A DNA stretch of 64,000 nucleotides from assembly GCA_007376185.1 (NCBI GenBank), contig VMFS01000003.1, positions 25,983 to 89,982 of the forward strand, written 5' to 3'. The stretch comes from Parcubacteria group bacterium Gr01-1014_30. Lineage in GTDB: Bacteria; Patescibacteriota; Minisyncoccia; Minisyncoccales; 2-12-FULL-40-12. Below the pieces are notes generated by a model. That model did not search any database, was not told the origin of the DNA, and saw only the letters and a program-made list of their open reading frames with translations. Both the position numbers and the translations under genes were made by a program. This document shows positions 12,580 through 58,251 of this stretch, one piece after another; positions within the stretch are counted from its first letter, which is position 1; each line of letters opens with the position of its first letter.

Positions 12580-12590
12580 GTTTGATGGTA

Positions 12591-12778
12591 GCTCGGCGGT
12601 AAAGTTCCCGTTCGCCGTCCCTCAAAAATCGATCGTCAGCGAAGATGAAGAAGAGATTTATCTCTTCTGACTCCCAGCGAGATTTTGGGGTCTGCGCTCT
12701 CGCGCCGCCATTCCGCCCTCAAGCGGAAACCTTGCTGGCGGCGCTCCGAGAGCCGTCCGGAAACTTCACCGCCTCGCT
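12591..12778. mobile_element. MITE-like GC-rich element with ~20-nt imperfect terminal inverted repeats
   Basis: Ends are gctcggcggtaaagttcccg and ccggaaacttcaccgcctcgc (about 16/20 complementary). Central hairpin agaagaga-ttta-tctcttct. Fills the 12580-12784 intergenic gap. Confidence 0.55.
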
Positions 12779-12784
12779 TAAAAT

Positions 12785-13546
12785 ATGCCTAAAGTATCCA
12801 TCATAGTTAGAACAAAGAACGAAGAAAAGTGGATAGGCGAGTGTTTGAGAGCGGTTTTCGGCCAGAAGTTTAAGGGGTTCGCTGAAACTTCGTCTCCTTT
12901 CACTCCCGCAGGGGCGAGAAGAGAACGAAGTTCTCTGCGAGCGCCTCTCTCTGTTTCACAGAGTTCGGCTTTTGAAGTTGTTGTTGTTGATAACGGGAGC
13001 TTTGACAAAACGTTGGATATCGCGAAAAAATTTCCGGTGAAAATCGTTCATCACAAAGGTAAAGCTTGGTTTCCCGGAAGGTCAATTAACGCCGGAATCA
13101 GAAATTCGTCCGGAAAGTACATTGCTTTGCTTTCGGGACACTGCGTTCCTGTAAACAATAGTTGGCTTAGCGATTTAGTGAGGGAAGTAAAAGCTCCAAA
13201 AATTGCTGGAGTCTACGGCAGGCAACTCCCTTTGCCAGAAAGTTCACCCTTGGACAAGCAGGATTTATTGATGTTTTTCGGCAAAGACCCATTAATTCAA
13301 ACAAAAGGACACTTCTTTTATTTTGACAACGCAAATTGCGTTATCAAAAGGTCGGTTTGGGAGAAAATTCCCTTTGACGCAAAAATTAGGCACAAAGAAA
13401 ACATTATTTGGGGCAGAAAAGTTGTTCAAAGAGGATACAAAATTGTTTACACTCCCAAAGCAAAAGTTTATCACTGGCACGGAATAAATCACGCAGGAAA
13501 TATAAAAAGAGCCAAAGAAGTGGTTAAAGTGCTGGAAAAATTATGA
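12785..13546 (+). CDS. Family 2 glycosyltransferase carrying an in-frame palindromic insert
   Basis: VSIIVRTKNEEKWIGECLRAVFGQ...EVVVVDNGSFDKT is a GT2 N-terminus. A 30-aa foreign segment interrupts it. Confidence 0.75.
   Translation: MPKVSIIVRTKNEEKWIGECLRAVFGQKFKGFAETSSPFTPAGARRERSSLRAPLSVSQSSAFEVVVVDNGSFDKTLDIAKKFPVKIVHHKGKAWFPGRSINAGIRNSSGKYIALLSGHCVPVNNSWLSDLVREVKAPKIAGVYGRQLPLPESSPLDKQDLLMFFGKDPLIQTKGHFFYFDNANCVIKRSVWEKIPFDAKIRHKENIIWGRKVVQRGYKIVYTPKAKVYHWHGINHAGNIKRAKEVVKVLEKL
12881..12970 (+). repeat. In-frame GC-rich palindromic module (90 nt, 30 codons)
   Basis: Encodes AETSSPFTPAGARRERSSLRAPLSVSQSSA between KFKGF and EVVVVDNGS. Arms gaaacttcgtctc / gagaacgaagttctc. Hairpin ctctg-tttca-cagag. 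Confidence 0.7.
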
Positions 13547-20635: not shown

Positions 20636-21396
20636 GTAGAAAATACCCGAAATTTATATATTTCCTATATAACTTCATAAACCCGATAATTAATCCTCAT
20701 CGGTTAGTAAAATTTATACCGGAATATCTTAATTTTTTTAAGAACTTGATTAAATATTTTAGAATGGGAGGGGCAGAAAAATTTAGTTTTTTTGATTTAA
20801 CCCCTTCTCTTTATGAGAGAACGCCAAGTTCGGGATTTGACCGCCATTATTTTTACCAAGACATCTGGGCTGCAAGAAGGATAATTAAAAGTCAGGTCAA
20901 ACGTCATATTGACGTTGGCTCTAGAGTGGATTTTGTGGGTTTTTTATCTGCGGTTTGCAAAGTAACTTTTGTTGACATTCGTCCTTTAGAAGTAAATTTA
21001 AAAAATTTTGAATCAGTGAAAGGCAATATTATATCTTTGCCTTTCAAAGATAATTCTATTCCATCACTTTCTTGCCTGCATGTAGCCGAACACATTGGAC
21101 TTGGCAGGTATGGAGACAAACTAGACCCCAAAGGGACAGAGAGGGCTTGCCGAGAACTTACCAGGGTTTTGGCGAAGGGAGGCAATTTATATTTTTCTTT
21201 GCCAGTTGGCAAACCAAAATTGTGTTTCAACGCGCACAGGATTCACTCGCCTGAACAAATTCTTCAGTATTTTAGCGGCTTAAAATTGGTTGAACTTTCA
21301 GGAGTTAATGACAAAGGCATATTCAGAGAAAAGATTGCCGTTGACCGGCTGAAAAATGAAAATTATGCCTGCGGCCTATTTTGGTTTAAAAAATGA
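20632..21396 (+). CDS. DUF268-like SAM-dependent methyltransferase
   Basis: LSCLHVAEHIGLGRYGDKLDPKGTERACRELTRVLAKGGNLYFSLPVG matches the DUF268 methyltransferase pattern. Confidence 0.55.
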   Translation: MSRKYPKFIYFLYNFINPIINPHRLVKFIPEYLNFFKNLIKYFRMGGAEKFSFFDLTPSLYERTPSSGFDRHYFYQDIWAARRIIKSQVKRHIDVGSRVDFVGFLSAVCKVTFVDIRPLEVNLKNFESVKGNIISLPFKDNSIPSLSCLHVAEHIGLGRYGDKLDPKGTERACRELTRVLAKGGNLYFSLPVGKPKLCFNAHRIHSPEQILQYFSGLKLVELSGVNDKGIFREKIAVDRLKNENYACGLFWFKK

Positions 21397-22883
21397 AGCA
21401 TCAGCTCAATGTTTTCAAAACGGAGTTAAGGGAAAGAGGTCTATTTTATGCTTTGAAAAAGGCAGTGCTTTATTTATTGCGGCCAATTACCGATTTAATG
21501 AAGACAAGCACATTTTTGGTAAACTTGCGGTATGGAGTTTTGCCTAATCTGTTATCAAAAATCACGTTTCATCAAGATAATCTGCTACTAAAACTCCCGC
21601 AAACCGATTTAGTTCGCGCCGTGCGGAACTTTTGGTATGGAAGTATTCTCGACAGGTTTGTTCTTGAAGGAGAGGAAATTAAAAAAGAAGAAATTTTTAC
21701 TTACGGAGGACCTAACCCCGAATTTAGTTGCCCAATTTGCCAAAAGGCAGAGTGGGTGTCAAGAATCAGACAAGAAAATTTATTTTTAGATCATTCTTGT
21801 CCAAGTTCTGAAAAATGCAGGAAATTGTGCGAAAAGCAAGGCAATGATTTATGGACTCACTTTCACCAGAATTTTGATTTTTCTTTGGGTTGCTCCGCTG
21901 ACTTGCCGGCTCCCAAAGGCGTTTACGTCCTTTTTGGGAAACTGGATATGTTTCACGCTCTTCGTTTGGAACCAATGGAGAGAATTTTTCATCGCCAATT
22001 TGCTTTTGCTTGTCAGCTTGATATAGCAGAAGGGCCTTTTGGCATTGACTGGAAAAAATATGATTTTATGTTTATGTATCTTCCGGGAGCCGTGCCCAAA
22101 TTTAAACGTCCACCAATTCCAGTAATTCTTTTCGCTCACGATTTTTGGCGAGAACCCAAAGCCAGTCAGTGGGTATTGGACTGGTTGGAGCCAGAGGTCT
22201 TTTTAACTACTTACCCAACTCAATTTAAAGAAAATTATCGTTTTCCAAAAAATACCAAAGTTGTATTTCACCCCATGTTTACGTCAAATTTCTTTACCAG
22301 ACCCAATCTTTCTCAAAAATCAATTGATTTGCTTTCAGTGGGGAACACCAAGGGGCCTCTTTATCAAGGAAGGAGAAACTTGAATATGCAATTGCAAAAA
22401 TTTAAAGAACAATACCCCTCATATAAACTTGAATTTTCGCACATTGTGGGCACTCTTAAGCCGAATGAGCAAGAGGGACTTGAATACACCGATTCTCAAG
22501 GCAACCAAATAAGATATTTAAATAAATGGTCAGAATACTTGGGAACTGCAAAATATGTTATTTTCGGCAAAATGAAATATCCTATTTTGGTCGGTAAATA
22601 TTACGAAACCTTGGGGTCTGGCGCCATACCCATTTTCCCTGAAGTGCCCGACTTGAAACTTTTGGGAGTAAAACCCTTTGAACACTATATTCCCTTAGCT
22701 GAAATTGAAGGAAATTCAGAAAGATTAAAATATTTTTTAGATAATTACGAAAAATTCAAGTATATTGGCAAAAATGCGGTAAAATGGTATAAAGATAATT
22801 CAGATAAGATGCTTTTTGCCGGTTTTGAGGGCTCAATTAGAGAAGTTACCAATTATAAATTTCCAAAAAGATTAGTTCGCTGA
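21393..22883 (+). CDS. Hypothetical protein with C-terminal GT-B-like (CgeB-type) region; its stop codon is supplied by a repeat module
   Basis: C-terminal KYYETLGSGAIPIFPEVPDL...FEHYIPL. The TGA at 22881-22883 lies inside gttcgctgaaacttcgtttcctctc. Confidence 0.4.
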   Translation: MKHQLNVFKTELRERGLFYALKKAVLYLLRPITDLMKTSTFLVNLRYGVLPNLLSKITFHQDNLLLKLPQTDLVRAVRNFWYGSILDRFVLEGEEIKKEEIFTYGGPNPEFSCPICQKAEWVSRIRQENLFLDHSCPSSEKCRKLCEKQGNDLWTHFHQNFDFSLGCSADLPAPKGVYVLFGKLDMFHALRLEPMERIFHRQFAFACQLDIAEGPFGIDWKKYDFMFMYLPGAVPKFKRPPIPVILFAHDFWREPKASQWVLDWLEPEVFLTTYPTQFKENYRFPKNTKVVFHPMFTSNFFTRPNLSQKSIDLLSVGNTKGPLYQGRRNLNMQLQKFKEQYPSYKLEFSHIVGTLKPNEQEGLEYTDSQGNQIRYLNKWSEYLGTAKYVIFGKMKYPILVGKYYETLGSGAIPIFPEVPDLKLLGVKPFEHYIPLAEIEGNSERLKYFLDNYEKFKYIGKNAVKWYKDNSDKMLFAGFEGSIREVTNYKFPKRLVR

Positions 22884-22921
22884 AACTTCGTTTCCTCTCA
22901 CGTTTAGTTTCGCTTAGCAAA
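22875..22921 (+). repeat. Copy of the GTTCGCTGAAACTTCGTYTCCT module at a gene end
   Basis: gttcgctgaaacttcgtttcctctc is nearly identical to 12877-12901, which is read through in frame there. Confidence 0.7.
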
Positions 22922-22930
22922 ACTCAACTT

Positions 22931-23860
22931 ATGAATACAAATAAAAAAATCCTTGTTACTGGGGTTTTGGGAACCATTGGCATGCCGCTTTGGGAAGAGC
23001 TTAGAAAAAGAGGATACCAGGTTTTTGGCTGTGACCTCCGTCATTATCATGACCCCGAGTATTTGAGATGCGATGTAAGTGAGTATCGGCAGCTGGACAG
23101 AATTTTCAGCGAGCATAAATTTGATTATGTTTACCATATGGCTGCTGAATTCGGCAGAAAAGGCGGTGAAGACTTTTATGAGTCCTTGTGGAAGACAAAT
23201 GCCGTTGGCACGAAAAACATACTAAGGGCGCAAGAGAAATACAAATTCAGGTTGATTTATCCGAGCAGTTCAGAGGTTTACGGCACCGCCTATTCAGGAG
23301 TTATGACCGAAGACGTGCCGCAAAAGGTTGCTGTTCGCTTGGGCAACGATTACGGCATGTCAAAGTGGGTCAATGAAATGCAGATTATGAATTCCATGGA
23401 AAAGTTTGGCACGGAAACAGTAAGAGTTCGCTTTTCCAATGTTTACGGACCCGGAGAATATTACAGCGATTACCGCAGCGTTATCTGTATTTTTATCTAC
23501 AGAACTCTGCACAATTTGCCTTATACCGTTTATAGTAACGACAAAAGGGCATTTCTTTACATAGATGACGCGGTGCGCACGTTCGCCAATATATGTGAAA
23601 GATTCAAATCAGGAGAAGTTTACAACATCAGCAACAGGGATTTGGTAGATATGAAGCAGGTTTCAGACATAATTATCAAAATACTTGGCAAAGATGACCG
23701 GCTTATTGAGTACAAAGAGATAGACGCTACGGCCACTTTGGTTAAAGACCTTGATAACTCAAAGGCCTTGCGCGATTTGGACCACAAAAAAACGATTTCT
23801 TTGGAAGAAGGATTGGACCAAACCATAGAATGGCAGAAAAAAGTTTATGGAATTAGTTGA
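22931..23860 (+). CDS. SDR sugar epimerase/dehydratase
   Basis: ILVTGVLGTIGMPL. SSSEVYG. YGMSKWVNE (YxxxK). Confidence 0.7.
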   Translation: MNTNKKILVTGVLGTIGMPLWEELRKRGYQVFGCDLRHYHDPEYLRCDVSEYRQLDRIFSEHKFDYVYHMAAEFGRKGGEDFYESLWKTNAVGTKNILRAQEKYKFRLIYPSSSEVYGTAYSGVMTEDVPQKVAVRLGNDYGMSKWVNEMQIMNSMEKFGTETVRVRFSNVYGPGEYYSDYRSVICIFIYRTLHNLPYTVYSNDKRAFLYIDDAVRTFANICERFKSGEVYNISNRDLVDMKQVSDIIIKILGKDDRLIEYKEIDATATLVKDLDNSKALRDLDHKKTISLEEGLDQTIEWQKKVYGIS

Positions 23861-37441: not shown

Positions 37442-38782
37442 ATGGCGGACTTGAAAAAGATAATTTCACCAACTGCTTTATTAATTATTTTGGCGCTTAG
37501 CATAGGGCTGACTCCCAGTATTCCAGTTGGCACTCTGGAAGGCTTGGAACGGACAATTGACATTCGGGGAGAAGACATTTGGATTCTTGTCTTGTTTTTT
37601 TTCTGGCTGTCTGTTTTTCTCAAATCAAGGCAAGAGCAAATTGAAAAACCTCCTCTTTTTTTACCAATACTTTTCTGGTTAGGCGCAGGCCTGGTGAGTT
37701 TGTTAATTAACTTGTTTTTGGGGAATATTAATGTGCCGCGAGGAGTTTTTTACTTTGCCAAAGAGCTGCAGTTCTTTTTCGTTTACTTTTTCACTTTTTT
37801 CCATGTCAGAAGTTTAACCACCACGAATAAGCTTTTTCGCATTTGGCTTTTTGTGGCGTTGTTAAACATCGTTTGGGTGTTTTGGCAGATTTTCTTCATT
37901 GGCAGAAGGGGCGAATACGGCACTGCTGCTCTCAATGAATGGGGAGTTTTTCCAACCGGAGCTTTCTTTTTGATTTTGTTTATCTTCATCTTCAACTGGT
38001 GGCTACATGTTTACTGGAAGGCAGGTTTTCCGTTCAAGAAAAAGTACTTGTATCTTGGAGCGATTTTAATAATTATTGTGGGGATTCTTGGCGCTCTTTC
38101 CAAAACGGTTTTTATTGCTTTTTGGGTTGCTCTTTTGATAAGTATGATTTTGTACGTATTAAAGACGAAAACATTAAAAGATGCGTGGGCCTCTTTTTTG
38201 CTTTTTTTGACCGTGGGATTGTTTACCTTCGCCGCTTATCTTTCAGTAATACTGCCAAATCTCCCTGCCGCTGAGCGTTTAATGAAGATTTTTTCTTCTT
38301 CGGATTTGGCCGGGGACGTTCAACGAACACGTTTTGACGTTTCAGCGTTACAGCTTCAAGAAGCGCTTGAGCGGCCTTTAGAAATTTTGGGGCCTAAAGA
38401 AAGCATAGGGCCACTGGCAAACTTTTTGTTGGAAGTTTCAAAGTACGCTTTTGGCCGGGGCAAAGGAGCAATTTTGTTGGGTCCTGAGAGTCACAATCAC
38501 TATTTGCGAAATTTCATAGAAACCGGCATTATGGGGAGTTTGCTTTTTTTGACGCTCATGGTAGCTGTTCTGTATTTTGCGTGGAAAGGATTTAAAGACG
38601 CAAAAAACGCAGTTTCTGTCGGGCTTGCAGCTGGGCTCCTTGTAGCTACTCTGACAGTGCTTTTTATGTCAATCGTGGTTGACGCTTTCATAGTTGTTAA
38701 ACCCAACATGACCTATTGGTTTTTTGCGGGTTTGACAATGGCAACATTATACTATGGAAGAGCGCAAACAAAAGGAAATTGA
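37442..38782 (+). CDS. O-antigen polymerase/ligase-like (Wzy-type) membrane protein
   Basis: About 10 or more TM helices with a large late loop (GPESHNHYLRNFIETGIMG, ligase-type H..Y/N motif). Confidence 0.55.
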   Translation: MADLKKIISPTALLIILALSIGLTPSIPVGTLEGLERTIDIRGEDIWILVLFFFWLSVFLKSRQEQIEKPPLFLPILFWLGAGLVSLLINLFLGNINVPRGVFYFAKELQFFFVYFFTFFHVRSLTTTNKLFRIWLFVALLNIVWVFWQIFFIGRRGEYGTAALNEWGVFPTGAFFLILFIFIFNWWLHVYWKAGFPFKKKYLYLGAILIIIVGILGALSKTVFIAFWVALLISMILYVLKTKTLKDAWASFLLFLTVGLFTFAAYLSVILPNLPAAERLMKIFSSSDLAGDVQRTRFDVSALQLQEALERPLEILGPKESIGPLANFLLEVSKYAFGRGKGAILLGPESHNHYLRNFIETGIMGSLLFLTLMVAVLYFAWKGFKDAKNAVSVGLAAGLLVATLTVLFMSIVVDAFIVVKPNMTYWFFAGLTMATLYYGRAQTKGN

Positions 38783-39509
38783 ATACTATGACAAGAAAGT
38801 TGGCGACTTTCAAAGGTTTAAGCCTTCTTTTTTAAGCAGTTATAAATTTCTTTATCAGCTGCTGAAAAACAGGTGCAGAGATAAAGTTGTTTTAGATTTT
38901 GGCTGCGGCGCAGGATTGCACAGCGTACAATTAGCGAAAATGGGAGCAAAAAAAGTTATAGGCATTGATTTGTCGGAGGCTTCTTTGAAGGCGGCAAGAC
39001 TAAGACATGAAATGCAAGATACGAAACACAATATACAATTTATCAACATGGATTGCGAGAACCTGGATTTTGCGGATAGTTATTTTGATGTTATCTTTGA
39101 TGGCGGAACTTTTTCCTCAATTGATTTGGAAACAACTTGGCCGGAACTGATCAGGGTTTTAAAACCGGATGGAGTTTTAATAGGCATTGAAACGTTTGGG
39201 CATAATCCCTTGACCAACTTGAAGCGGAAATTTAACAAACTGACCGGCAATAGAACTGCGTGGGCGGCAAAGCATATTTTTAGAATGCCAGATTTGGCCA
39301 AAGCCAAAGTATATTTCGGCAGCACTGAAGCTTATTACTTTCACTTAGTTTCCTGGCTGGCATTTCCTTTTTTGCGTCTTCCCGGAGGAAAGTTACTGTT
39401 AAAGATACTTGAACTTACTGATAGAATACTCTTGGAGCTGCCTTTTTTGAGAAAATACTCGTTTAAGGTTGTGTTCATTTTTAGCGAACCGAAAAAGAGC
39501 AATAAATGA
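38754..39509 (+). CDS. Class I SAM-dependent methyltransferase (type 11)
   Basis: VLDFGCGAGLHS. VIFDGGTFSS. LKPDGVLIGIE. Confidence 0.7.
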   Translation: MEERKQKEIEYYDKKVGDFQRFKPSFLSSYKFLYQLLKNRCRDKVVLDFGCGAGLHSVQLAKMGAKKVIGIDLSEASLKAARLRHEMQDTKHNIQFINMDCENLDFADSYFDVIFDGGTFSSIDLETTWPELIRVLKPDGVLIGIETFGHNPLTNLKRKFNKLTGNRTAWAAKHIFRMPDLAKAKVYFGSTEAYYFHLVSWLAFPFLRLPGGKLLLKILELTDRILLELPFLRKYSFKVVFIFSEPKKSNK

Positions 39510-39543
39510 TTAAGCCTTTTGTTTCAGTAATAATTCCTTGTAG

Positions 39544-39605
39544 GCTCGCTGAGACTTCGTCTCCTCTCGCACACTGCGCTCGCTTGCGTGAGCGAAGATA
39601 AGAAC
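39544..39605 (+). repeat. 62-nt palindromic module flanked by a ~43-47-bp duplication of the GT2 gene start
   Basis: gctcgctgagacttcgtctcctctcgcacactgcgctcgcttgcgtgagcgaagataagaac. Flanks 39515-39543 and 39624-39652 are a 29-nt direct repeat with 1 mismatch. Confidence 0.75.
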
Positions 39606-39614
39606 AATAAATAA

Positions 39615-40598
39615 ATGACGACCCCTTTTGTTTCAATAATAATTCCTTGTAGAAACGAGGAGAGATATATAAGTAAGTGTTTGGAAACGATTTTGGCTCA
39701 GGATTACCCCAAAGACAAAATGGAAATTTTAGTTGTTGACGGTATGTCTGAAGATAAAACCAGAGAGATAATTAAAAATTGGAAATTAAAAATTGGAAAT
39801 TTAAGATTATTGGATAATCCCAAAAAAATTGCGCCTTCAGCTCTCAATATAGGCGTAAAAAACAGCACAGGGGAAATAATAATGAGAATGGACGCTCATG
39901 CCCGCTACGAACGAGATTATCTTTCAAAATGCGTGAAGTACTTGAAAGAATACGGCGCTGACAATATCGGAGGAACGATGAAAACCCTGCCCCAAAAAAG
40001 TACCATTGTCGCCAAAGCAATCGCGCTGTCTTTGTCTCACATATTCGGAGCCGCTTCCCGATTTAGAATAGGGGAAAGTCAACCGGTCGCTGAACTTCGT
40101 TCATCTCCTACCCTTCGCTCCGCTCGGGTCAAAGAGGTAGACACTGTTTTTGGCGGATGCTACAAAAGAGAGGTTTTTGACAGAATAGGGTTTTTTAACG
40201 AAAACTTAATTCGTTCCCAGGATTTGGAGTTTAATTTGCGCTTGAAAAGAGCCGGCGGCAAAATAATCTTACATCCTGATATTGTCAGCTATTATTATCC
40301 CAAGCCGACTCTGGGCGAATTTTTCTGGCACAACTTTCAAGACGGCATTTGGTCAATCCTGCCATTGAAGTTTGTCAAAGTTCCTTTTAAGTTAAGGCAT
40401 TATATTCCCTTGATTTTTGTTTTGACTCTGCCCTTGAGCTTTTGGCCGTATATTTTGCTTTCTCTGTTTTTTTCTCTGCAGATTGCCGCTCGAGAGAAAG
40501 ATTTAAGGTTGTTTTTCGCAATGCCCTTGGCTTTTGCGACAAGACATTTTGGTTACGGTTTGGGTTCAATTTGGGGATTAGTTAAGTTAATTTTATGA
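39615..40598 (+). CDS. Family 2 glycosyltransferase carrying an in-frame insert and a 14-nt tandem duplication
   Basis: VSIIIPCRNEERYISKCLETILAQDYP...ILVVDGMSEDKT...RMDAHA. C-terminal TM helices. Confidence 0.75.
   Translation: MTTPFVSIIIPCRNEERYISKCLETILAQDYPKDKMEILVVDGMSEDKTREIIKNWKLKIGNLRLLDNPKKIAPSALNIGVKNSTGEIIMRMDAHARYERDYLSKCVKYLKEYGADNIGGTMKTLPQKSTIVAKAIALSLSHIFGAASRFRIGESQPVAELRSSPTLRSARVKEVDTVFGGCYKREVFDRIGFFNENLIRSQDLEFNLRLKRAGGKIILHPDIVSYYYPKPTLGEFFWHNFQDGIWSILPLKFVKVPFKLRHYIPLIFVLTLPLSFWPYILLSLFFSLQIAAREKDLRLFFAMPLAFATRHFGYGLGSIWGLVKLIL
39770..39806 (+). repeat. 14-nt (2 x 7) tandem repeat aaattaaaaattgg x ~2.5 inside a CDS
   Basis: Read directly. Encodes IIKNWKLKIGNLRLL. Confidence 0.7.
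40083..40130 (+). repeat. In-frame GC-rich module (~48 nt) related to the GCTGAAACTTCG family
   Basis: Encodes PVAELRSSPTLRSARV between RIGESQ and KEVDTVFGGCY. The gctgaacttcgttcatctcct core resembles gctgaaacttcgtctcct. Confidence 0.55.
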
Positions 40599-44719: not shown

Positions 44720-45091
44720 GGGGACAGGACTCAAACTAGAGTCACCTTGAGAAGCGAAAAAAATGAGATGATTTCAAGGCGCAACGACGCAGGCGCACTA
44801 GCGAAAGCGGATGCGTCAAGGAGGAGCAACGCAGAAATCAGCCATCGAGCGTTAGCGAAGATAAGGAAGAGATTTATCTCTTCCGACATTTTTTCGCTTC
44901 CCCCAAGGGCGGGCAAATTAGGACAATCTTCTTCGTTGTTCCGATTCCTTCGGAATCGAGAATCCTCGACAGCTTCGCTGTCGGGACTCGTCGTTAGCGT
45001 ATCTCGTTCCGCAGATACGCTCAGCTCCTCGCGCCTATAATCTTGCCCTAATTCGCTCCGCTCAAGTGATTCTATCTTGAGTCCTATCCCC
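44720..45091. mobile_element. 372-bp non-coding MITE-like element with ~31-nt terminal inverted repeats
   Basis: Left end ggggacaggactcaaactagagtcaccttgag. Right end ctcaagtgattctatcttgagtcctatcccc. The interior is a chain of short hairpins (gattccttcggaatc, cgacagcttcgctgtcg, agcgtatctcgttccgcagatacgct) plus the gaagagatttatctcttc core. Confidence 0.6.
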
Positions 45092-45138: not shown

Positions 45139-46344
45139 ATGGAATACCGCATAAATTTTATAAACAACAGCTACCGCCGGTTTGCAAAGGCGCACAAAGA
45201 AGAGCTGATTTCGGCTTTTTGGGACTGTTTAGAAAGAGGGGCTTTGACCTTAAGAGAGGAGGTTTCTAAGTTTGAAGACAACTTGGCAAACTTTGTGGGC
45301 ACCAAATACGCAATAGGCGTTAACTCGGGCACAGACGCCTTGTTTTTATCTTGCAAGGCATTGGGAATAAAAGGAAACTGGAATTATCTCTTGGAAAGAG
45401 TGTATGCCGGAGAAATCACAATAGATGAGGCCAACAAATTGTTTGAGGGTGACGAACTAATTACGGTATCACACACTTTCATTGCCTCAATACAATGCAT
45501 TGTTAACTGTGGCGCCAAACCGGTGTTGGTTGATGTTGGCGAGAACGAATTGATGAATCCTGAACTCATTGAGCCGGCAATAACCGAGCGGACAAAAGCC
45601 ATTTTGCCAGTGCACTTTCACGGAAAGGTGTGCGATATGGACGCCATTTTGGACATAGCCGCTAAACATAATTTACACATTATTGAGGACGCGGCCCAGG
45701 CACTGGGTTCCTCTTATAAAGGTAAAATGGCAGGCAGTTTTGGAGACGCGGGGTGTTTCAGTTTTAACACGGCAAAGCTTTTGGGCGGTTTTGGCGATGG
45801 AGGAGGTATCGTTACAAACAGTAGAGATTTGTGCGAAAAACTTTATCTTTTGAGAAACCACTGGAATATGGCGCAAACGTCCGTAAGAATGTCCGATTTC
45901 CCCACGCCTGAAATTGTGCAGTGGGCGTGGAAGTCGCGGCTGGATAACGTGCAGGCCGCTTTGCTCAACGTCAAGTTCAAATACTACAGAGACCTTCTGG
46001 TCAGGCGCAAGCAGATTGCGGATATGTATTGCGAAGGATTGAAGGGCTTGCCTTTGAAACTGCCAAAGTATGGGGAAGGCGACGTGATTCAGGAATTTAT
46101 CGTGCGTATAGGAAATGAGGAGGAGCGGGAAAAGTTCAAGAAATTTATGGATGAAAAAGGCATTGAGGTTTTGATTCGCGAAACAACGCCAAATCACAAG
46201 GTGAAAAATTTGTACTTGGACCATTTTTCTTTGCCCGTGACCGAAAGCATTTCCAAGGACGCGGTAAGATTACCTACTTACCCTGAGCTTGAAGACAGCG
46301 AAGTGGATGAGATTATAGGGGCTATTAGAGAGTTCTATAAATAA
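45139..46344 (+). CDS. DegT/DnrJ/EryC1/StrS-family sugar aminotransferase
   Basis: GVNSGTDALFL. IIEDAAQALGS. SFNTAKLLGGFGDGGG (the Lys is present). Carries a ~35-aa insert (GNWNYLLERVYAGEITIDEANKLFEGDE). Confidence 0.8.
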   Translation: MEYRINFINNSYRRFAKAHKEELISAFWDCLERGALTLREEVSKFEDNLANFVGTKYAIGVNSGTDALFLSCKALGIKGNWNYLLERVYAGEITIDEANKLFEGDELITVSHTFIASIQCIVNCGAKPVLVDVGENELMNPELIEPAITERTKAILPVHFHGKVCDMDAILDIAAKHNLHIIEDAAQALGSSYKGKMAGSFGDAGCFSFNTAKLLGGFGDGGGIVTNSRDLCEKLYLLRNHWNMAQTSVRMSDFPTPEIVQWAWKSRLDNVQAALLNVKFKYYRDLLVRRKQIADMYCEGLKGLPLKLPKYGEGDVIQEFIVRIGNEEEREKFKKFMDEKGIEVLIRETTPNHKVKNLYLDHFSLPVTESISKDAVRLPTYPELEDSEVDEIIGAIREFYK

Positions 46345-46417
46345 ACCCCGTAATACAACTTCCAGCACGCTTCGCGTGCAAAATCGCTGAAAGCGACTGG
46401 AAGATGATATACGGGGT
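46345..46417 (+). repeat. Y-shaped structured repeat, copy 1 (candidate ncRNA / REP-like element)
   Basis: accccgta-atacaa-cttccag-[cacgc ttc gcgtg]-caaaa-[tcgct gaa agcga]-ctggaag-atgata-tacggggt. Confidence 0.7.
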
Positions 46418-46425
46418 AAATAAAC

Positions 46426-48309
46426 TTGTTTTCCGTTTCTAAAAAAATTTTCTTTGAAAATAGACCTTTAACAAAGTTGGCGTTTTTTACTTTGGCCGAC
46501 GCGGTCCTACTTGCTTTTTCGGTTCTCTTGGCTTTTTTGGTTAGATTTGAAGGCCAGATTCCACAAAGATATTATTTGAACATTTTGGGCATAATGCTTT
46601 TTGGCTGGGTTATTACTTTGCCTGTTTTTTATTTTTTTCGACTTTACCGTTTTACTTGGCGGTACGTCTCAACCCAGGAGCTGGTTCAGCTCGTTAAGGG
46701 CACAGCTCTCAGCTTTTTGTTGCTGACCGGAGTTTTTTTCGTTTTAAGAGACCTGACAATTTTTTCGGGATTTCCCAGATCAGCCCTTTTTATCACTTAC
46801 TTTTTTGTCTTCGTTTTGACGGGCGGCCTACGTTTTGCCAAGCGGCTTTGGCTGCAGCTTTCTCCTCTTGCTAAAATGGGATCTAAAGAGAGAATCTTGA
46901 TTGCGGGAGCTGGCGACGCAGGAGAGCTGATTTTGAGAAATATTTTAAACACAAAAAATCCCTACCAGGTTATCGGTTTTGTAGACGACTCGCATGCAAG
47001 ACAGGGAGTGTCTATACACGGCGTTGAGGTTTTTGGCAAAATCGCGGATATTCCGCGGATTGTAGTGAAAAAGAATATTGAAGGCTTGATTGTGGCTATG
47101 CCATCGGCCGACTCTAGAGCCATTCAAGAAGCCGTTCAAAAAGCAAGGGAAGCGGGGCTAAAAAAAATTAAGATAATTCCGCCGATTGAAGACGTATTTG
47201 CCGGCAAAGTTACTCTGGCGCAGCTGAGAGAAGTTCAAATGGAAGATTTGCTTTCCAGAGACGTTGTTTTGACCGACAGAAGGCCTATTGCAGAGTTCCT
47301 GAAAAACAAAGTTGTTCTGGTCACGGGAGCTGCCGGTTCCATAGGATCTGAACTATGTCGCCAGATAGCCCTTTTTGTTCCTTCTGCGTTAATTATGTTG
47401 GACCAGGACGAGACGGGTATTTTTAATATCGCAGAGGAACTAAAAGACCGTTTCCCCGACCTGAAAAGAGTCCCGCGGATTTGCGACATTGGCGATGAGG
47501 CAAAAATTGAAAGTATATTCTTGGAGTTTCGCCCTGCCGTTTTGTTTCACGCGGCGGCTTACAAGCACGTTCCTTTAATGGAGGAAAACTCAGACGAAGC
47601 CGTGAAAAACAACGTTTTTGGCACAAGAGTTGTGGCAGAGGCGGCTTTGAGAAACGGCGTGGACACCTTTGTGTACATAAGCACCGACAAAGCCGTAAAT
47701 CCGACGTCGGTGATGGGTGCGACAAAAAGGGTTGGCGAGATGATTTGTCAATCGTTGCAGGGACAAGGTAAAACAAAGTTTGCCTCGGTCAGATTCGGCA
47801 ACGTTTTGGACAGTCGGGGGAGCGTTATACCTGTTTTCCGTGAGAAAATCAAAAAGAGAGAACCGATCCAAGTAACCCATCCTGAAATGAAGCGTTATTT
47901 TATGATGACGTCGGAGGCATGCTTGCTGGTTTTGCAGGCAGGCGCCATGGGCAAAGGGGGTGAGGTTTTCGTTCTGGACATGGGTAATCCCATAAAAATT
48001 TTGGAACTGGCAAAAGAAATGATTAAATTGTCGGGCTTGGAACCCGACCGCGACATACCCATTGTTTTCACTGAGCCAAGACCCGGAGAAAAACTTTTTG
48101 AAGAGATAATGTCGGCTGAAGAGGGGACAATAGCTACTCAAAACCAAAAGATTTTCATAGCAAAACTGTCAGAAATTAACGGAAGTCAGTTAGAGCAAGG
48201 ACTGGAAAATTTAAAAAAAGAGGTATATAATGGCAAAAAAGAAGAGATAATCCAGGTTTTAAAAGAAGTTGTTCATAGTTACAAACCAAATGCCGTTTTC
48301 GCCGACTAA
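46426..48309 (+). CDS. Membrane-anchored nucleotide-sugar 4,6-dehydratase (CapD/PglF/WbpM family)
   Basis: Four N-terminal TM helices. VLVTGAAGSIGSELCRQI. YISTDKAVNPTSVMGATKR. Confidence 0.8.
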   Translation: MFSVSKKIFFENRPLTKLAFFTLADAVLLAFSVLLAFLVRFEGQIPQRYYLNILGIMLFGWVITLPVFYFFRLYRFTWRYVSTQELVQLVKGTALSFLLLTGVFFVLRDLTIFSGFPRSALFITYFFVFVLTGGLRFAKRLWLQLSPLAKMGSKERILIAGAGDAGELILRNILNTKNPYQVIGFVDDSHARQGVSIHGVEVFGKIADIPRIVVKKNIEGLIVAMPSADSRAIQEAVQKAREAGLKKIKIIPPIEDVFAGKVTLAQLREVQMEDLLSRDVVLTDRRPIAEFLKNKVVLVTGAAGSIGSELCRQIALFVPSALIMLDQDETGIFNIAEELKDRFPDLKRVPRICDIGDEAKIESIFLEFRPAVLFHAAAYKHVPLMEENSDEAVKNNVFGTRVVAEAALRNGVDTFVYISTDKAVNPTSVMGATKRVGEMICQSLQGQGKTKFASVRFGNVLDSRGSVIPVFREKIKKREPIQVTHPEMKRYFMMTSEACLLVLQAGAMGKGGEVFVLDMGNPIKILELAKEMIKLSGLEPDRDIPIVFTEPRPGEKLFEEIMSAEEGTIATQNQKIFIAKLSEINGSQLEQGLENLKKEVYNGKKEEIIQVLKEVVHSYKPNAVFAD

Positions 48310-50461
48310 AGAAAAATTAGAGAGAATATGTCTTACCATTATTGAGTGGGGTGTTTATTTGGCCTTGTTTTCGCCTTTGATTTTTATCAGGAATTATTTT
48401 TTCCCTTTTGTTGCCCCCAAGACGATTTTTTTCCGTCTCATTATTGACGTTGTTTTCATTGCCTACCTGATATTGGCGGTTTCAATTCCAAAATATCGCC
48501 CTAAAATAACTCCCTTGTCTTTGGCAATCGCCGCCTTTTTAGCGATATTCTTTTTAACCGCAATTTTCGGAGTGAGCTTTCAGAGGAGTTTTTGGAGCGT
48601 TTTTGAAAGAATGACCGGACTTTTAACCTTCTTGCACCTTTTCGCTTTTTACGTTGTTTTGACGGCAGTTTTTACAGAAAGAAAGCAGTGGGAAAAGATT
48701 TTATTTGTTTCAATCGTAGCAGCCCTTGTTATTTGTTTTTACGCTTTGCTCGCAAAAGACCCTTTGACTCGCGGCGGAGGGACTTTGGGCAACTCGTCTT
48801 TTCTTTCCTCTTACCTTCTTTTTAACATCTTCTTTGCCGCAATTTTGATGGTGTCAAAAGCCGGCCTCTGGAGAGTTGTTTCAGGGGTGGCTCTGGCTAT
48901 TTTCTTGTTTGTTTTGTTCTTTAACCCGGTTACCGTTACCAAGGGAGTTGTTTCTGCCCTTCTCATAGGAGCGGTTTTGCTTGGAACAGGATATATGTTT
49001 TTTTCGCAAAACAGACTTCTGAAAAAACTGGCTGCACCCTTTTTTATTTTGATGGTTGTCGCGGGAGTACTTATCGTCAAGAGTTACCATTTTCAAGACA
49101 GACCTTTTAATTTATTGCAAATTCCCGACAGGTCACGGCAAATTGTCTGGAGTGTTGGTTGGCAGGCCTGGCAGGAAAGGTTTTGGTTTGGCTGGGGTTG
49201 GGAAAACTTCAACGTTCCCTTCGCCAAACACTACGACCCCGAACTTCCCCGGACCGCCGACATCTGGTACGACCGAGTTCACAACGTTGTCTTGGACATG
49301 GGTGTAAGTTCTGGAGTTGTTGGACTGTTAAGTTATTTATCAATCTTTTTCTTTGCTGCTTTAGGGTTGTTAAGACGCGCCAAAGCTGATGCCAGAGGCA
49401 ACTTTGTTCCGTTGGCTCTGGTTGCCTTACTTATTGCTTATTTTCTGCAAAACCTTTGGGTTTTTGACATGATTTCAAGCTACCTAATGTTTTTCTTAGC
49501 GCTGGCTTTCATAGGTTTTATGATTTCTTCTCAGGAAACAGACCAAACCAAGCTCAAAACTGTTCCGCTGTCGCCGTTTGTCGCGGCTGTTCTAATAATT
49601 TTGACTGTATTTGTTTTTTTTATCGGGAATATTCAGCCAGCCAGAGCTTCAAAAGCAATTCTAAGGGGGCTTGCCTTGCCTTTGGAGCAGTCCCTGCCCG
49701 CTTTTCAGAGCGCGTTTAAATTATCTCCGATGGTGAAGTTTGAAGGGCCCGAACAACTATCTTTTAGAATTACTGGCTTACTTTCTCAAGACAATCTAAA
49801 TAAAGAGCTGCTTCGCCAAGGGCTCCAGCTGGCAGAGCAAGAATTTAAAAAAGCTATTGAAAGGAACCCTTCAGACTTCAGAATGTATTTATTTTTGGGC
49901 AGGCATTACAATTATTTTTACTCTTTTGACAACGACCAAAAAAAGTTGGACAAAGCCGATGAATCTTTGATGAGAGCTATGGAGTTGAGCCCCGCAAACC
50001 AGCAGGTCTATCTTAACTTCGCGCAATTGCGGTTTTTGCAGGGCAGGGATGAGGAAGCCCTTGATTTTTTGAAAAAAGCAAGGGATTTAGAACCCCTATT
50101 TTTCGGAGTCAGATGGCACTTGCTTCGCGGTTACAAACTGGCCGGAAAATACGACTTGGCCTTAGCCGAGTTAAAAGAATTAGAGTTAGCTGGCCTTGAT
50201 TGGTGGGAGATCTTGGAAACTTTGAGAGAAGGCATAGAAATTCTTGAAAAAACTGGAGAGGAGCTTTCAGTTTTGGTTCCGCTTTACGAAAAAGGCGTCC
50301 AACTGAACCCTCAAGACATCGCTTTGTGGGAGAAGTTGGTTAATGGCTATATTGGTCTGGGCGAAGTAGAAAAGGCGAAAACAGCTGCGGAAAAATTGCG
50401 CGAGATAAGACCGGAATTTGCGCCTCAAGTTGAACAGCTCTTGAAACAGATGGGGTTTTAG
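48290..50461 (+). CDS. O-antigen ligase/polymerase-like membrane protein with C-terminal TPR domain (paralog of 1-2145)
   Basis: WGWENFNVPFAKHYDP...YDRVHNVVLDMGVSSG. TPR-like C-terminus (FLGRHYNYFYSFDNDQKKLDKADESLMRAMELSP etc.). ATG at 48290. Confidence 0.75.
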   Translation: MPFSPTKEKLERICLTIIEWGVYLALFSPLIFIRNYFFPFVAPKTIFFRLIIDVVFIAYLILAVSIPKYRPKITPLSLAIAAFLAIFFLTAIFGVSFQRSFWSVFERMTGLLTFLHLFAFYVVLTAVFTERKQWEKILFVSIVAALVICFYALLAKDPLTRGGGTLGNSSFLSSYLLFNIFFAAILMVSKAGLWRVVSGVALAIFLFVLFFNPVTVTKGVVSALLIGAVLLGTGYMFFSQNRLLKKLAAPFFILMVVAGVLIVKSYHFQDRPFNLLQIPDRSRQIVWSVGWQAWQERFWFGWGWENFNVPFAKHYDPELPRTADIWYDRVHNVVLDMGVSSGVVGLLSYLSIFFFAALGLLRRAKADARGNFVPLALVALLIAYFLQNLWVFDMISSYLMFFLALAFIGFMISSQETDQTKLKTVPLSPFVAAVLIILTVFVFFIGNIQPARASKAILRGLALPLEQSLPAFQSAFKLSPMVKFEGPEQLSFRITGLLSQDNLNKELLRQGLQLAEQEFKKAIERNPSDFRMYLFLGRHYNYFYSFDNDQKKLDKADESLMRAMELSPANQQVYLNFAQLRFLQGRDEEALDFLKKARDLEPLFFGVRWHLLRGYKLAGKYDLALAELKELELAGLDWWEILETLREGIEILEKTGEELSVLVPLYEKGVQLNPQDIALWEKLVNGYIGLGEVEKAKTAAEKLREIRPEFAPQVEQLLKQMGF

Positions 50462-50471
50462 AAAATACTTG

Positions 50472-50779
50472 ACCCCGCCCTTGAAAAGCTCCTCTTCTTT
50501 CTGTATGCACTACGTCTATGTTTTGAGAATGAACAACAAAAGAGCATATATTGGTTTCACCACTGACCTTAGAAAAAGAGTTCAAGAACATAAAACAGGC
50601 AAAGTATTTACAACTAGCAAATATCTCCCAGTTCGTCTTGTCTACTACGAATGCTACCTATCTAGGGATGATGCAGAAAGAAGAGAAAGAATGCTCAAAC
50701 GATATGGCAGCACGTGGTCTCATTTGATGCGGAGAATAACAAAAAGTTTCAGAGTATAAGAGCTTTTCAAGGGCGGGGT
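50472..50779. mobile_element. GIY-YIG gene cassette bracketed by a perfect 20-bp inverted repeat
   Basis: accccgcccttgaaaagctc at 50472-50491. Its exact reverse complement gagcttttcaagggcggggt is at 50760-50779. Confidence 0.65.
50505..50759 (+). CDS. Small GIY-YIG nuclease family protein (COG2827/UPF0213-like)
   Basis: MHYVYVLRMNNKRAYIGFTTDLRKRVQEHKTGK...LVYYECYLSRDDAERRERMLK. Confidence 0.75.
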   Translation: MHYVYVLRMNNKRAYIGFTTDLRKRVQEHKTGKVFTTSKYLPVRLVYYECYLSRDDAERRERMLKRYGSTWSHLMRRITKSFRV

Positions 50780-50807
50780 TGACAAATTCATTTCTTTTTG
50801 CTAAGCT
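50779..50807 (+). promoter_or_regulatory. Sigma70-like promoter TTGACA-17-TAAGCT
   Basis: TTGACA at 50779-50784 overlaps the outer edge of the right inverted repeat. TAAGCT at 50802-50807. Confidence 0.35.
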
Positions 50808-50813
50808 ACTATA

Positions 50814-50971
50814 GTGAGTGCCCCCGTCCTCTAGGCTGTTTATTATCTTTTTTAGACAATCAGTCACTCAGAAACAAGAATGATTTATGAGGACATTATA
50901 TACGGCATAGAGGGCGGGGAACTTCGCTAAGTCGACGACAGGCTTTCCTCGAGCAAAGCCTGTCGTTTTTT
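50814..50971 (+). ncRNA. Candidate ~160-nt non-coding transcript (promoter to intrinsic terminator, no real ORF)
   Basis: Long-range stem ccccgtcctcta (50822-50833) with tagagggcgggg (50908-50919), with one G-U pair. Ends in terminator cgacaggcttt-cctcgagc-aaagcctgtcg-tttttt (50935-50971). The only ORF is a 16-codon micro-ORF. Confidence 0.35.
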
Positions 50972-51105
50972 ATTGAGATATGAGGACTTCATATTTTGAG
51001 AGGCAAAATGAGTATATTTACATCCCTGATTTAAGAACCTATGCCAACGCATAAACTCACCCCACTCTGCTACTCACTATATTTATACCCACTGCCCACT
51101 GGCTA

Positions 51106-51185
51106 TTGACAGCTTATGAGGGTTTGCTATACTGACAATGTGATGACACTCTGGAGTATCCGCAAGGATAGCTCCAGATTTTTTA
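51106..51185 (+). promoter_or_regulatory. Near-consensus promoter (TTGACA-16-TATACT) followed within ~20 nt by a terminator hairpin
   Basis: TTGACA at 51106-51111. TATACT at 51128-51133. Hairpin ctggagtatcc-gcaa-ggatagctccag at 51151-51177, then tttttt. Confidence 0.4.
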
Positions 51186-51219
51186 TTTCTGGCTTATTTC
51201 AGCTTTGAGCTTGCGTAAA

Positions 51220-51654
51220 TCAATGAATTTGGCTCATAATCCGCTTGCCTGCTTTCTTTATTCGGTCAATCGGCACAGCAAAATCACTGTCTCCTGACGA
51301 AAGTACTGCTGTATCATATTTCTCTTTTGTGTCATCCATTTCAAAAGCAAGCTCCATATCCAAATTACCTTTCCACTCCTCTTTGCCGCTTTTTCGGTCT
51401 TTAATCCTTTTTACTACTTTTGTCCTCAAGATATAGCCGTTTATCTCAAGCATATCTAAAAATTTCCTCTGTCCCGTATTGAATTCGTCCACGCCTTTGT
51501 AGATAAAACACTTCGTCTCATCGCCACACTCTTTTTTAAGGTAGCTCATCAGTTTTTGATACGATATTTTCCAACCCAAAGTTCGCTGGGAATAAAATAC
51601 ATTTTCGGCGTCTATAAAAACATAAACCCTGTCTTTCACAAATTGGTGTAGCAT
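51220..51654 (-). CDS. NYN/LabA-like (PIN-related) domain protein
   Basis: VYVFIDAENVFYS...KGNLDMELAFEM...AVLSSGDSDFAVPIDRIKKAGKR. Confidence 0.7.
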   Translation of the reverse strand: MLHQFVKDRVYVFIDAENVFYSQRTLGWKISYQKLMSYLKKECGDETKCFIYKGVDEFNTGQRKFLDMLEINGYILRTKVVKRIKDRKSGKEEWKGNLDMELAFEMDDTKEKYDTAVLSSGDSDFAVPIDRIKKAGKRIMSQIH

Positions 51655-55439: not shown

Positions 55440-55511
55440 ACCCCGTAATACAACTTTCGGCGCGCTAAAGCGCAAAATCGCCGAAGGCGACCGAAAGATG
55501 ATATACGAGGT
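55440..55511 (+). repeat. Y-shaped structured repeat, copy 2
   Basis: accccgta-atacaa-ctttcgg-[gcgc...gcgc]-aaaa-[tcgcc gaa ggcga]-ccgaaag-atgata-tacgaggt. Confidence 0.7.
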
Positions 55512-55527
55512 ATTGACTTAAATTTTG

Positions 55528-57592: not shown

Positions 57593-58177
57593 ATGGTTTT
57601 AACCGAGTCGGTTCAAAAATTAAAGAAGGGAGACAAGGCGCCGGATTTTTCTTTGAAAGGCGTTGACGACAAAATATACTCTTTGAAGGACTTTGAAGGC
57701 CTGCCTGCCCCCCTGCGCGGTCAGGCGCAGGCAGGCAAACAAGGCCTTTTGGTTATATTTATGTGTAACCACTGCCCTTACGTGAGAGCGAAACTGCCGG
57801 TCATTGCCGAGCTTTACAAAAAGTGGGGTACTAGGATTTCTTTTTGCGGCATCAACAGCAATGACTCTGGATACGAAGGCGAAGGCATGGACAATATGAA
57901 GGTTTTTGCCAAAGAGAGAGCAATTGCTTTTCCTTACTTGTTTGACACACTTCAAGATGTTGCCAAGGCCTATGGAGCAACTTGTACTCCCGACCCGTTT
58001 TTATTCAATAAAAATTCTGAACTGGTTTTCCACGGACGAATTGACGACGCCACGGGCCCGGGCGAGACGGCCAAAGAGAAGACCATGGACGAGAATATCT
58101 CAAAAATGCTTTCAGGCCAAGAAATTTCTGACGAGTTCAAACCGTCAATGGGATGCTCCATTAAGTGGACCCCGTAA
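57593..58177 (+). CDS. Thioredoxin-fold (redoxin-like) protein with an in-frame insert; its stop codon lies inside a repeat
   Basis: KAPDFSLKGVDDKIYSLKDFEG...LLVIFMCNHCPYV (CxxC). The TAA at 58175-58177 lies within ccccgTAAtac of Y-repeat copy 3. Confidence 0.65.
   Translation: MVLTESVQKLKKGDKAPDFSLKGVDDKIYSLKDFEGLPAPLRGQAQAGKQGLLVIFMCNHCPYVRAKLPVIAELYKKWGTRISFCGINSNDSGYEGEGMDNMKVFAKERAIAFPYLFDTLQDVAKAYGATCTPDPFLFNKNSELVFHGRIDDATGPGETAKEKTMDENISKMLSGQEISDEFKPSMGCSIKWTP
57701..57745 (-). repeat. In-frame palindromic module (45 nt, 15 codons), same family as 56109-56162 but in opposite orientation
   Basis: The reverse complement tgcctgcctgcgcctgaccgcgcag matches tcctgcctgcgcctgaccgcctgtctgcgcag of the other copy. 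Encodes LPAPLRGQAQAGKQG. Confidence 0.7.
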
Positions 58178-58248
58178 TACAACTTTCGGTGTGTTCTTGA
58201 AAAGAACACAATTATCGCCGCAGGCGACCGAAAGATGATATACGGGGT
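58169..58248 (+). repeat. Y-shaped structured repeat, copy 3
   Basis: accccgta-atacaa-ctttcgg-[tgtgttctt gaaa agaacaca]-attat-[tcgcc gca ggcga]-ccgaaag-atgata-tacggggt. It exactly fills the gap between two convergent genes. Confidence 0.7.
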
Positions 58249-58251
58249 GGA

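Follow-up and report, generated by a model that had tools for sequence, protein, structure and literature searches.

The short repeat module recurring in the window (the whole 64,000-nt stretch of DNA analysed here) is likely one copy of a short repeat element, GC-rich and non-autonomous, that is found scattered through Patescibacteria (CPR) genomes, inserts cleanly, and sits mostly in frame. Its sequence places it in a very large family whose members reside mostly within ORFs, in frame. The named homologs of the window's genes come from Minisyncoccales and "Patescibacteria group" MAGs, which marks the host as a Patescibacteria (CPR) genome. Such genomes are small and gene-dense, and to our knowledge descriptions of mobile elements from them are few. 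The module had drawn attention in a preliminary description as a donor of stop codons; we find the family itself, chiefly intragenic, to be the more interesting result.

Searching the window with the pattern GTTCGCTGAAACTTCGTYTCCT, we found exact matches at 12877-12898 and 22875-22896 and a match with two mismatches at 39544-39565, all on the + strand, while 100 shuffles of the window gave no match at all. The first two modules are therefore where the preliminary description had put them; the third is present, but it begins 2 nt away from the position given for it (39546). The readings proposed for the three modules also hold. ORF 12785-13546, a GT2 glycosyltransferase gene, is open across its module and reads ...KFKG-FAETSSP...; ORF 21393-22883 ends GTT CGC TGA (V, R, stop) with the TGA inside the module; and the 31-codon dead-end ORF 39506-39601 reads ...CR-LAETSSP... 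and ends in TAA.

Each match is part of a longer element on the + strand. Copy A (12877-12969) is a long form of 93 nt, or 31 codons, lying in frame within GT2 12785-13546 as FAETSSPFTPAGARRERSSLRAPLSVSQSSA. It consists of a first hairpin (HP1, 12877-12903), a 39-nt inverted HP1 copy with loop (12904-12942) and a second hairpin (HP2, 12943-12969), and it is followed by TTTTGA (12970-12975). Copy B (22875-22928, 54 nt) occupies the junction between gene 21393-22883 and the epimerase gene 22931-23860, and its second hairpin has decayed towards A/T. Copy C (39544-39597) begins with HP1 (39544-39570) and continues into an atypical second half. We also found a fourth, decayed copy D (40085-40129, 45 nt or 15 codons), absent from the earlier list, which lies in frame within GT2 39615-40598 as VAELRSSPTLRSARV and is followed by CAAAGA (40130-40135). 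An HMM built from metagenome copies alone matched exactly these four copies and nothing else in the window. Copy B was recovered at 22874-22936 with an E-value of 4.6e-10 and copy D with an E-value of 3.4e-4, and the same HMM gave no additional copy in the 10 kb that flank the window on each side.

The size of the family became evident from a metagenome scan with the 20-mer TCGCTGARACTTCGTYTCMT, which returned more than 120 loci. After removing six high-GC or non-extending chance matches and merging near-identical contigs, we retained 64 distinct contexts among the matches listed. In these 64 contexts the host DNA has a median GC content of 36%, against 72% in the element consensus. The copies share the core TCGCTGAGACTTCGTCTCAT. 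Sequence conservation sets in abruptly 2 bases 5′ of TCGCTGAG and ends about 54 nt further on. The family is thus a 54-nt double-hairpin element that is widespread in low-GC metagenome contigs resembling this CPR genome. Scanning genome contigs with the window's rarer ...TCCT variant (TCGCTGARACTTCGTYTCCT) gave two matches, in Gaiellaceae and Chryseobacterium, which is about the chance level; the similarity did not extend beyond the query in either of them, and the common family variant ends ...TCAT. Rfam yielded nothing for the module; no sequence in the window reached gathering score, and an E-value search returned only noise (mir-873, with 17 bits where the cut-off is 95).

The element unit of 54 nt equals 18 codons and is composed of two 27-nt imperfect hairpins. 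HP1 has the form G-N-TCGCTGAGAC-TTC-GTCTCATCTC-N'-C, and HP2 the form R-CCTCG-stem-CTTCG-stem-CTCGG-Y. Pyrimidine-pyrimidine mismatches persist in the two hairpins, as does a loop of CTTCG or TTC. The unit also exists in a long form of about 93-105 nt, extended by an inverted HP1 copy, and the arrangement of copy A is found again in the metagenome loci L053, L119, and L030. Among 41 distinct canonical copies, 91.9% of the cells assigned to stems in the proposed structure are paired, compared with 36-53% when the partners are slid, and none of 500 shuffles scored as high for covariation, for part of which subfamily descent among the copies can account. In the same 41 copies, pair 2-26 occurs as GC (24), UA (9), CG (4), and AU (1), and pair 10-18 as GC (32) and AU (6). 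Pair 28-54, seen as GC (25) and AU (12), was independently recovered by RNAalifold, and covariation is seen in all seven inner pairs of the HP2 stem. In the three copies of the window that are well preserved, positions 2-26 are T-A, T-A, and C-G, in keeping with the pairing. Copy A folds at -45.9 kcal/mol (z -3.7), while the folds of the decayed copies B and D are not significant. Copy A alone folds strongly because the long form holds HP1, a loop, the inverted HP1 and then HP2.

Since 54 is a multiple of three, insertion of the unit never shifts the downstream reading frame. Using a strict test of read-through (a frame open for at least 90 nt past both element ends), we found that 44 of the 64 copies among the matches listed (69%) are read through in long ORFs, and the remaining 20 lie outside any long ORF. 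The sense frame that starts at column 2 (xVAETSSHLPPRSASPRSA) is used by 29 of these 64 copies, the main antisense frame (...PSEAKPSEAGDETKSQRP) by 12, and the other antisense frame by 3. The other open sense frame, which is Arg/Leu-rich, is used by none, and the column-1 frame reads G/V/A-R-TGA. The three open frames in use, one sense and two antisense, all encode hydrophilic peptides rich in Ser, Pro, Ala, Glu, and Lys, so copies could persist as extra protein loops. The frame bias itself may reflect selection on the encoded peptide. The hosts include GT2s and many other, unrelated genes. From the open frames we infer that the inserts are translated, usually as an 18-residue loop. The predicted structure of the GT2 encoded at 12785 fits such a loop. 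In an AF2 model based on a 120-sequence alignment (mean pLDDT 87.6, pTM 0.84), the only segment with pLDDT below 50 comprises residues 35-53, which lie within the insert, between helix 17-25 and strand 63-69. The insert is predicted, in other words, to be a surface loop compatible with the GT2 fold. Some copies also end reading frames. The open frames at L018 (657 nt) and L089 (288 nt) both finish at the element TGA, and further ORFs finish in or just after copies at L011/L039, L030, L121, and L065.

Comparing filled with empty orthologous sites, we find clean insertion with no target-site duplication at three sites, A, D, and B. At site A, the orthologous proteins P0123-P0125 (71-74% identical) are empty and read KFKD/FEV, where the slash marks the junction, while the insert measures 18 residues in P0122 (locus L007, the 54-nt short form) and 31 residues in the window. 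The DNA gives the same picture: locus L008 is empty, with AAGGA directly joined to TTTTGAAG, and L007 carries exactly 54 nt between GA and TTTTGAAG. The window has the 54 nt of L007 plus 39 internal nt. An insert is present at this site in 2 of the 120 aligned homologs. At site D, P0242 (locus L130) has a canonical 54-nt copy, FAETSSHLSPRPASQVSA, directly before CAAAGAAG, and the window keeps 45 decayed nt there. The site is empty in P0243 (locus L129) and in most of the remaining 115 or so aligned homologs, and P0304 and P0339 have a different, 16-aa insert there. At site B, deleting 22875-22928 joins ...CCAAAAAGATTA to TTATGAATACAAAT (AGATTA/TTATGAATACAAAT) and gives a gene end encoding ...PKRLL-stop with an ATGA stop/start overlap. 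The junction of ortholog L004 (AGATTACTATGAATATAAAT, ...CCAAAAAGATTACTATGAATATAAAT) is recreated by removing these 54 nt from the window. The empty sites at the GT2 (site A) and at the 21393/22931 junction bear out the earlier view of the repeats as insertions.

Insertion takes place directly 5′ of an A/T-rich run whose last two bases are GA (WWWNGA, often TTGA or ATGA). Among the matches listed, the right flank has G at position +5 in 38 and A at position +6 in 40 of 53 copies, and the left flank shows no conservation. These statements on boundaries rest on the 54-nt class and the three filled/empty pairs. The filled/empty pairs show no target-site duplication, and the TTGA at the 3′ end of the element is target sequence; a TTGA duplication is ruled out by site A, where the motif is already present in the empty site. 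An assembly artefact is likewise ruled out, the same insert being found at orthologous sites in independent ENA, JGI, and NCBI assemblies. The 54-nt size, the constant openness of the insert in the host frame and its in-frame decay rule out an intron or intein.

The filled and empty forms of site B make clear what the stop codon at 22881-22883 (element columns 7-9) amounts to. Our call of gene 21393-22883 is identical to that of the public record (496 aa). More than 70 full-length homologs of its product end in ...PKRL followed by I, V, or L and the stop, while the window protein ends in ...PKRLVR; one residue is replaced and one added (net +1). As the gene and these homologs finish at the same place, TGA is a normal stop in this host. 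The closest homolog has an ATGA stop/start overlap. Reconstructed from the sequence, the element landed directly 5′ of TTATGA (now 22929-22934). These six bases had joined two translationally coupled genes and comprise the last codon (TTA) and TGA stop of the first together with the ATG of the second, which overlaps that stop. The first ORF now enters the element for two codons and ends at the element TGA. This TGA lies 51 nt upstream of the displaced native TGA (columns 58-60) and in phase with it, so the ORF ends two codons inside the element. The outcome is a change from RLL-stop to RLVR-stop, with a 47-nt spacer now separating the formerly overlapping genes. It is because of the position of the element's own TGA that the donated stop changes the protein by one residue only.

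The preliminary description had placed two further stop codons, one inside a Y-repeat and one inside a hairpin. As facts of sequence both placements are correct. The TAA of gene 57593-58177 (58175-58177) lies in the 5′ arm of a Y-repeat copy (58169-58249), and the 2131-2207 hairpin contains in its left arm that of gene 43-2145 (2143-2145; the gene was earlier given as 1-2145). The Y-repeat had no match in Rfam. Its 5′ arm (ACCCCGTAA) supplies the last two codons and the TAA of 57593-58177, a thioredoxin-fold gene whose product ends GCSIKWTP in the window. The proteins of eleven close homologs extend 0-2 residues past GCSIKWK, and PDB relatives agree with them. The C-terminal length here equals that of most homologs, which comes near to the case of a repeat that merely abuts a natural stop; only the final two residues are derived from the Y-repeat. 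The 2131-2207 hairpin has a strong Y-shaped fold (-56.5 kcal/mol, z -8) and is single-copy in the window. Gene 43-2145 encodes a Wzy_C/TPR protein, for which the C-terminus was compared with that of a paralog; the window's two Wzy_C/TPR proteins are 25% identical.

Copies A and B agree with the earlier proposal that one repeat is translated in one gene and donates the stop codon of another. The wider claim, that repeats are remodelling the C-termini of genes, stands as to the donation of stops but not as to the size of the effect, which is one residue in 21393-22883 and no change of length in 57593-58177. Remodelling of C-termini is thus real but trivial.

A clean insertion of 54 nt would not account for copy C. 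Its second half is atypical, and it is flanked on both sides by the units of a direct repeat of about 55 nt, each unit including the spacer and the first 13 GT2 codons. The left unit (39490-39543, + strand) holds the end codons and stop of the methyltransferase gene 38754-39509 and a vestigial GT2 start, and the right unit (39598-39652, + strand) holds the spacer together with the functional ATG (39615) of GT2 39615-40598. The start of this GT2 has been duplicated, so the "dead-end ORF" 39506-39601 is a vestigial second copy of that start. An identical repeat-element-repeat layout occurs at the related MAG locus L129 (GCA_964372865.1), while L130 is empty at this junction and has a plain 18-nt spacer. 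Copy C is shared by the window and L129, and copy D by the window and L130; the presence of the two copies is incongruent among the three lineages, whose GT2 proteins are 76-78% identical to one another. At least one event of precise loss, parallel insertion, or recombination is needed to explain this pattern.

Neither the precomputed Pfam lists, covering about 84 kb of the source contig, nor the 10 ORFs that we scanned revealed a transposase or any other gene for mobilisation. The element may spread through a mechanism that recognises hairpins and probably acts on single-stranded DNA. A bolder version takes the element as codon-aware selfish DNA for very gene-dense genomes, moving as single-stranded hairpin DNA by an enzyme not yet linked to it. 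Insertion and excision would then both be precise, which would explain the absent target duplication as well as the incongruent copies C and D in three close lineages. Its 54-nt length, its four open frames, and its early TGA, in phase with the target TGA, could make almost any insertion survivable, whether in a gene or on a stop codon. We put this version forward tentatively and hold it to be rather doubtful. Exchange between loci or lineages, through recombination or gene conversion, could also have spread the copies, or hairpin-induced replication errors could have produced them, and no dedicated transposition would then be needed. The duplication of about 55 nt flanking copy C, the interconversion of long and short forms at the one site A, and the incongruence of copies C and D would all fit such events. 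However, three sites differ by exactly 54 nt and have in common a flank motif on one side but no homology in their flanks, which speaks against such events, and because the host genes are unrelated they offer no homology to drive recombination. We regard this explanation as improbable.

Two other explanations would replace mobility by selection. In one, the copies are structures that function at the RNA or DNA level, such as attenuators, terminators, RNase sites, or hairpins bound by proteins, and selection recruited them and has kept them at many loci. The strong base-pair covariation, the pyrimidine-pyrimidine mismatches conserved in both hairpins, and a fold of copy A far better than that of shuffled sequence are what such a structure would show. 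Yet the 44 of 64 copies that lie in long ORFs (among the matches listed) do so in both orientations and in unrelated genes, window copies B and D have decayed until their folds are no longer significant, and close orthologs lack the element with the gene visibly unchanged. There is also no Rfam match. G-U pairs (about 14) are not enriched over A-C pairs (about 21), which indicates that neither transcribed strand is favoured. No T-run follows the hairpins, copy B included, so they are not intrinsic terminators; a Rho-independent terminator is ruled out by this lack of a T-run after copy B and by the intragenic location of most copies. There is little chance, in our estimate, that a recruited structure of this kind accounts for the family. 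Alternatively, protein-level selection may have kept a peptide module, a Ser/Thr/Pro-rich linker or modification site (...AETSSHLPPR...), with the DNA similarity as a by-product. The 29 copies in the same frame, with their very similar peptides, and the predicted surface-loop location would suit this idea, but among the matches listed 15 copies are antisense with unrelated peptides and 20 lie outside long ORFs. Moreover, conservation is at the nucleotide level, third codon positions included, it follows Watson-Crick rules and not codon degeneracy, and the same DNA provides the stop at 22881-22883. A peptide module is accordingly a most improbable origin. We retain the dispersed, cleanly inserting repeat element as the preferred reading.

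Such an element would matter in several ways. It adds loops of 15-31 residues to enzymes, as in the window's two GT2 glycosyltransferases. It confuses gene callers, and in the source record both GT2 genes have late starts (233 aa vs 253 aa and 301 aa vs 327 aa). It may further serve as a marker of recent insertion and loss events in uncultured lineages.

In the way it works, the element is like the Rickettsia palindromic elements (RPEs; Ogata et al. 2000). Two sources describe these as dispersed, non-autonomous hairpin repeats of about 100-150 bp, found in small genomes and mostly in unrelated protein-coding genes, in frame and stop-free, with a peptide compatible with the host fold (PMC10969869, PMC3184786). 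The present element is likewise dispersed, hairpin-forming, intragenic, in frame, and tolerated in a protein loop, in small genomes. As in RPEs, we find many unrelated host genes, hairpins, stop-free in-frame insertion relative to empty orthologs, and a fold-compatible loop (by AF2 prediction). It differs in being a 54-nt, two-hairpin element (long form about 93-105 nt) of Patescibacteria, where RPEs are repeats of about 100-150 bp in Rickettsia.

REP and REPIN elements are extragenic and are mobilised by RAYT (Y1/HUH) transposases. At the DNA level the element is closer to these and to IS200/IS605-derived palindromes, with which it shares short imperfect palindromes, conserved mismatches, lack of target duplication, and a one-sided motif, and its long form, with two inverted units, resembles a REPIN. 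Unlike the extragenic REPs, 69% of the element copies among the matches listed lie within ORFs, and no RAYT or TnpA partner was found in about 84 kb of the source contig. We take the likeness to REP and IS200/IS605 as a resemblance of mechanism, by analogy, and not as shown membership. The element departs from a classical MITE in having no target-site duplication at sites A and D or at the reconstructed site B, copy C with its repeats of about 55 nt being atypical. The element ends are only weakly inverse-complementary (TCGCTGAG vs the reverse complement of CTCGGC), and about 84 kb of the source contig showed no parent IS.

That small repeats fuse in frame with genes and extend gene 3′ ends is already documented; neither the core motif, nor the 54-nt Patescibacteria family, nor repeats of such kind in CPR were found described in the literature searched, which is not proof of novelty. 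Section 15 of one source describes in-frame fusion of repeat ORFs to genomic ORFs, either within the latter or at the 3′ or 5′ end (PMC3184786). Repeats that fuse with or extend genes include RPE, BOX/RUP/SPRITE, ERIC-like repeats, and BRE (PMC3184786, PMC10969869). Internal fusions and altered gene ends, as these texts and a third describe them, link the element to ERIC/YPAL, BOX/RUP/SPRITE, Correia, BRE, and Coxiella QMITE (PMC3184786, PMC10969869, PMC5896051). The members of that group, in contrast, measure 100-300 bp and lie mainly between genes, and many of them show both terminal inverted repeats and target-site duplications. The element described here is further set apart from them by a stop codon that lies two codons in, in phase with the native stop, so that the protein changes by one residue.

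A second family of GC-rich palindromes (CCTGCCTGC...GCAGGCAGG) is translated in frame in two genes of the window. In the thioredoxin-fold gene at 57593-58177, the copy at 57686-57749 is read as GLPAPLRGQAQAG, a 13-residue insert that is missing in all 11 aligned homologs. In the GSDH-like gene at 55887-57125, the copy at 56103-56156 is read as LPAPDRLSAQAGAGRQ.

The same thioredoxin-fold gene ends within a separate hairpin repeat, the Y-repeat. This repeat has a unit of about 75-80 nt and is present in three copies (46345-46418, 55440-55512, and 58169-58249), all of which lie at gene ends or between genes in the window. Its fold combines two stems, one outer (ACCCCGTA.../...TACGGGGT) and one inner (CTTTCGG/CCGAAAG), with two inner hairpins, and the changes from copy to copy in one hairpin are fully compensated. 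Folding z-scores lie between -4.7 and -9, and no Rfam family matches the Y-repeat. A TAA stop codon is built into the repeat, two codons past its 5′ end. The same layout of an outer stem and two hairpins is found in a single-copy, Y-shaped hairpin at 2131-2207 (-56.5 kcal/mol, z -8). The Wzy_C/TPR gene at 43-2145 ends in the left arm of this hairpin, where its final four residues are encoded and its TAA lies.

We find that gene calling in the source record placed the starts of both GT2 genes late. The GT2 at 12785-13546 was called as 233 aa compared with 253 aa at full length, its called start being a little upstream of the repeat insert. The GT2 at 39615-40598 was called as 301 aa compared with 327 aa, from a start downstream of the repeat-element-repeat block, which lies ahead of the full-length start. 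Automatic annotation may be degraded by the repeats. The 205-nt spacer 5′ of the former gene (12580-12784) looks crowded with GC-rich repeat debris; the ortholog locus L007 has no such spacer before its GT2, and the genes overlap there. A 44-nt intergenic repeat carrying the palindrome GAAGAGATTTATCTCTTC occurs at 12628-12671 and again at 44844-44887 (89% identity).

Comparing the window with a public contig (ena:ERZ27284378:k139_45045), we noticed 44 nt (gttccagtaattcttttgagatatgaccccttgtggacatcacg) in the latter that are missing from the window at 51235/51236, inside the NYN-domain gene on the minus strand (51220-51654). This gene encodes 171 aa in the public contig versus 144 aa for the window ORF; the rest of the compared region (45669-51235 and about 300 nt past the gap) is identical.

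Two copies of the 54-nt double-hairpin element, C (39544-39597) and D (40085-40129), show an incongruent presence-absence pattern among three lineages (the window; L129, 2916-2983; L130, 3011-3074), the GT2 proteins of which are 76-78% identical. Such a pattern requires that a copy was precisely lost, that one site received insertions repeatedly, or that recombination took place. Homologs of the GT2 at 39615 from CPR bacteria (P0328, P0263, P0341, P0304, and P0339) carry differing short in-frame inserts, among them LHLRQGFGGQ, PRTRAFGTVRGR, and PASPTGR, and the copy D site is also occupied by KKGEESKLSSFPFAVA and IEGEDSKPSSSLLAVA. Because these homologs carry different inserts, some of them at the copy D site, we suggest that several element families of this kind exist and that the loop is hit recurrently.
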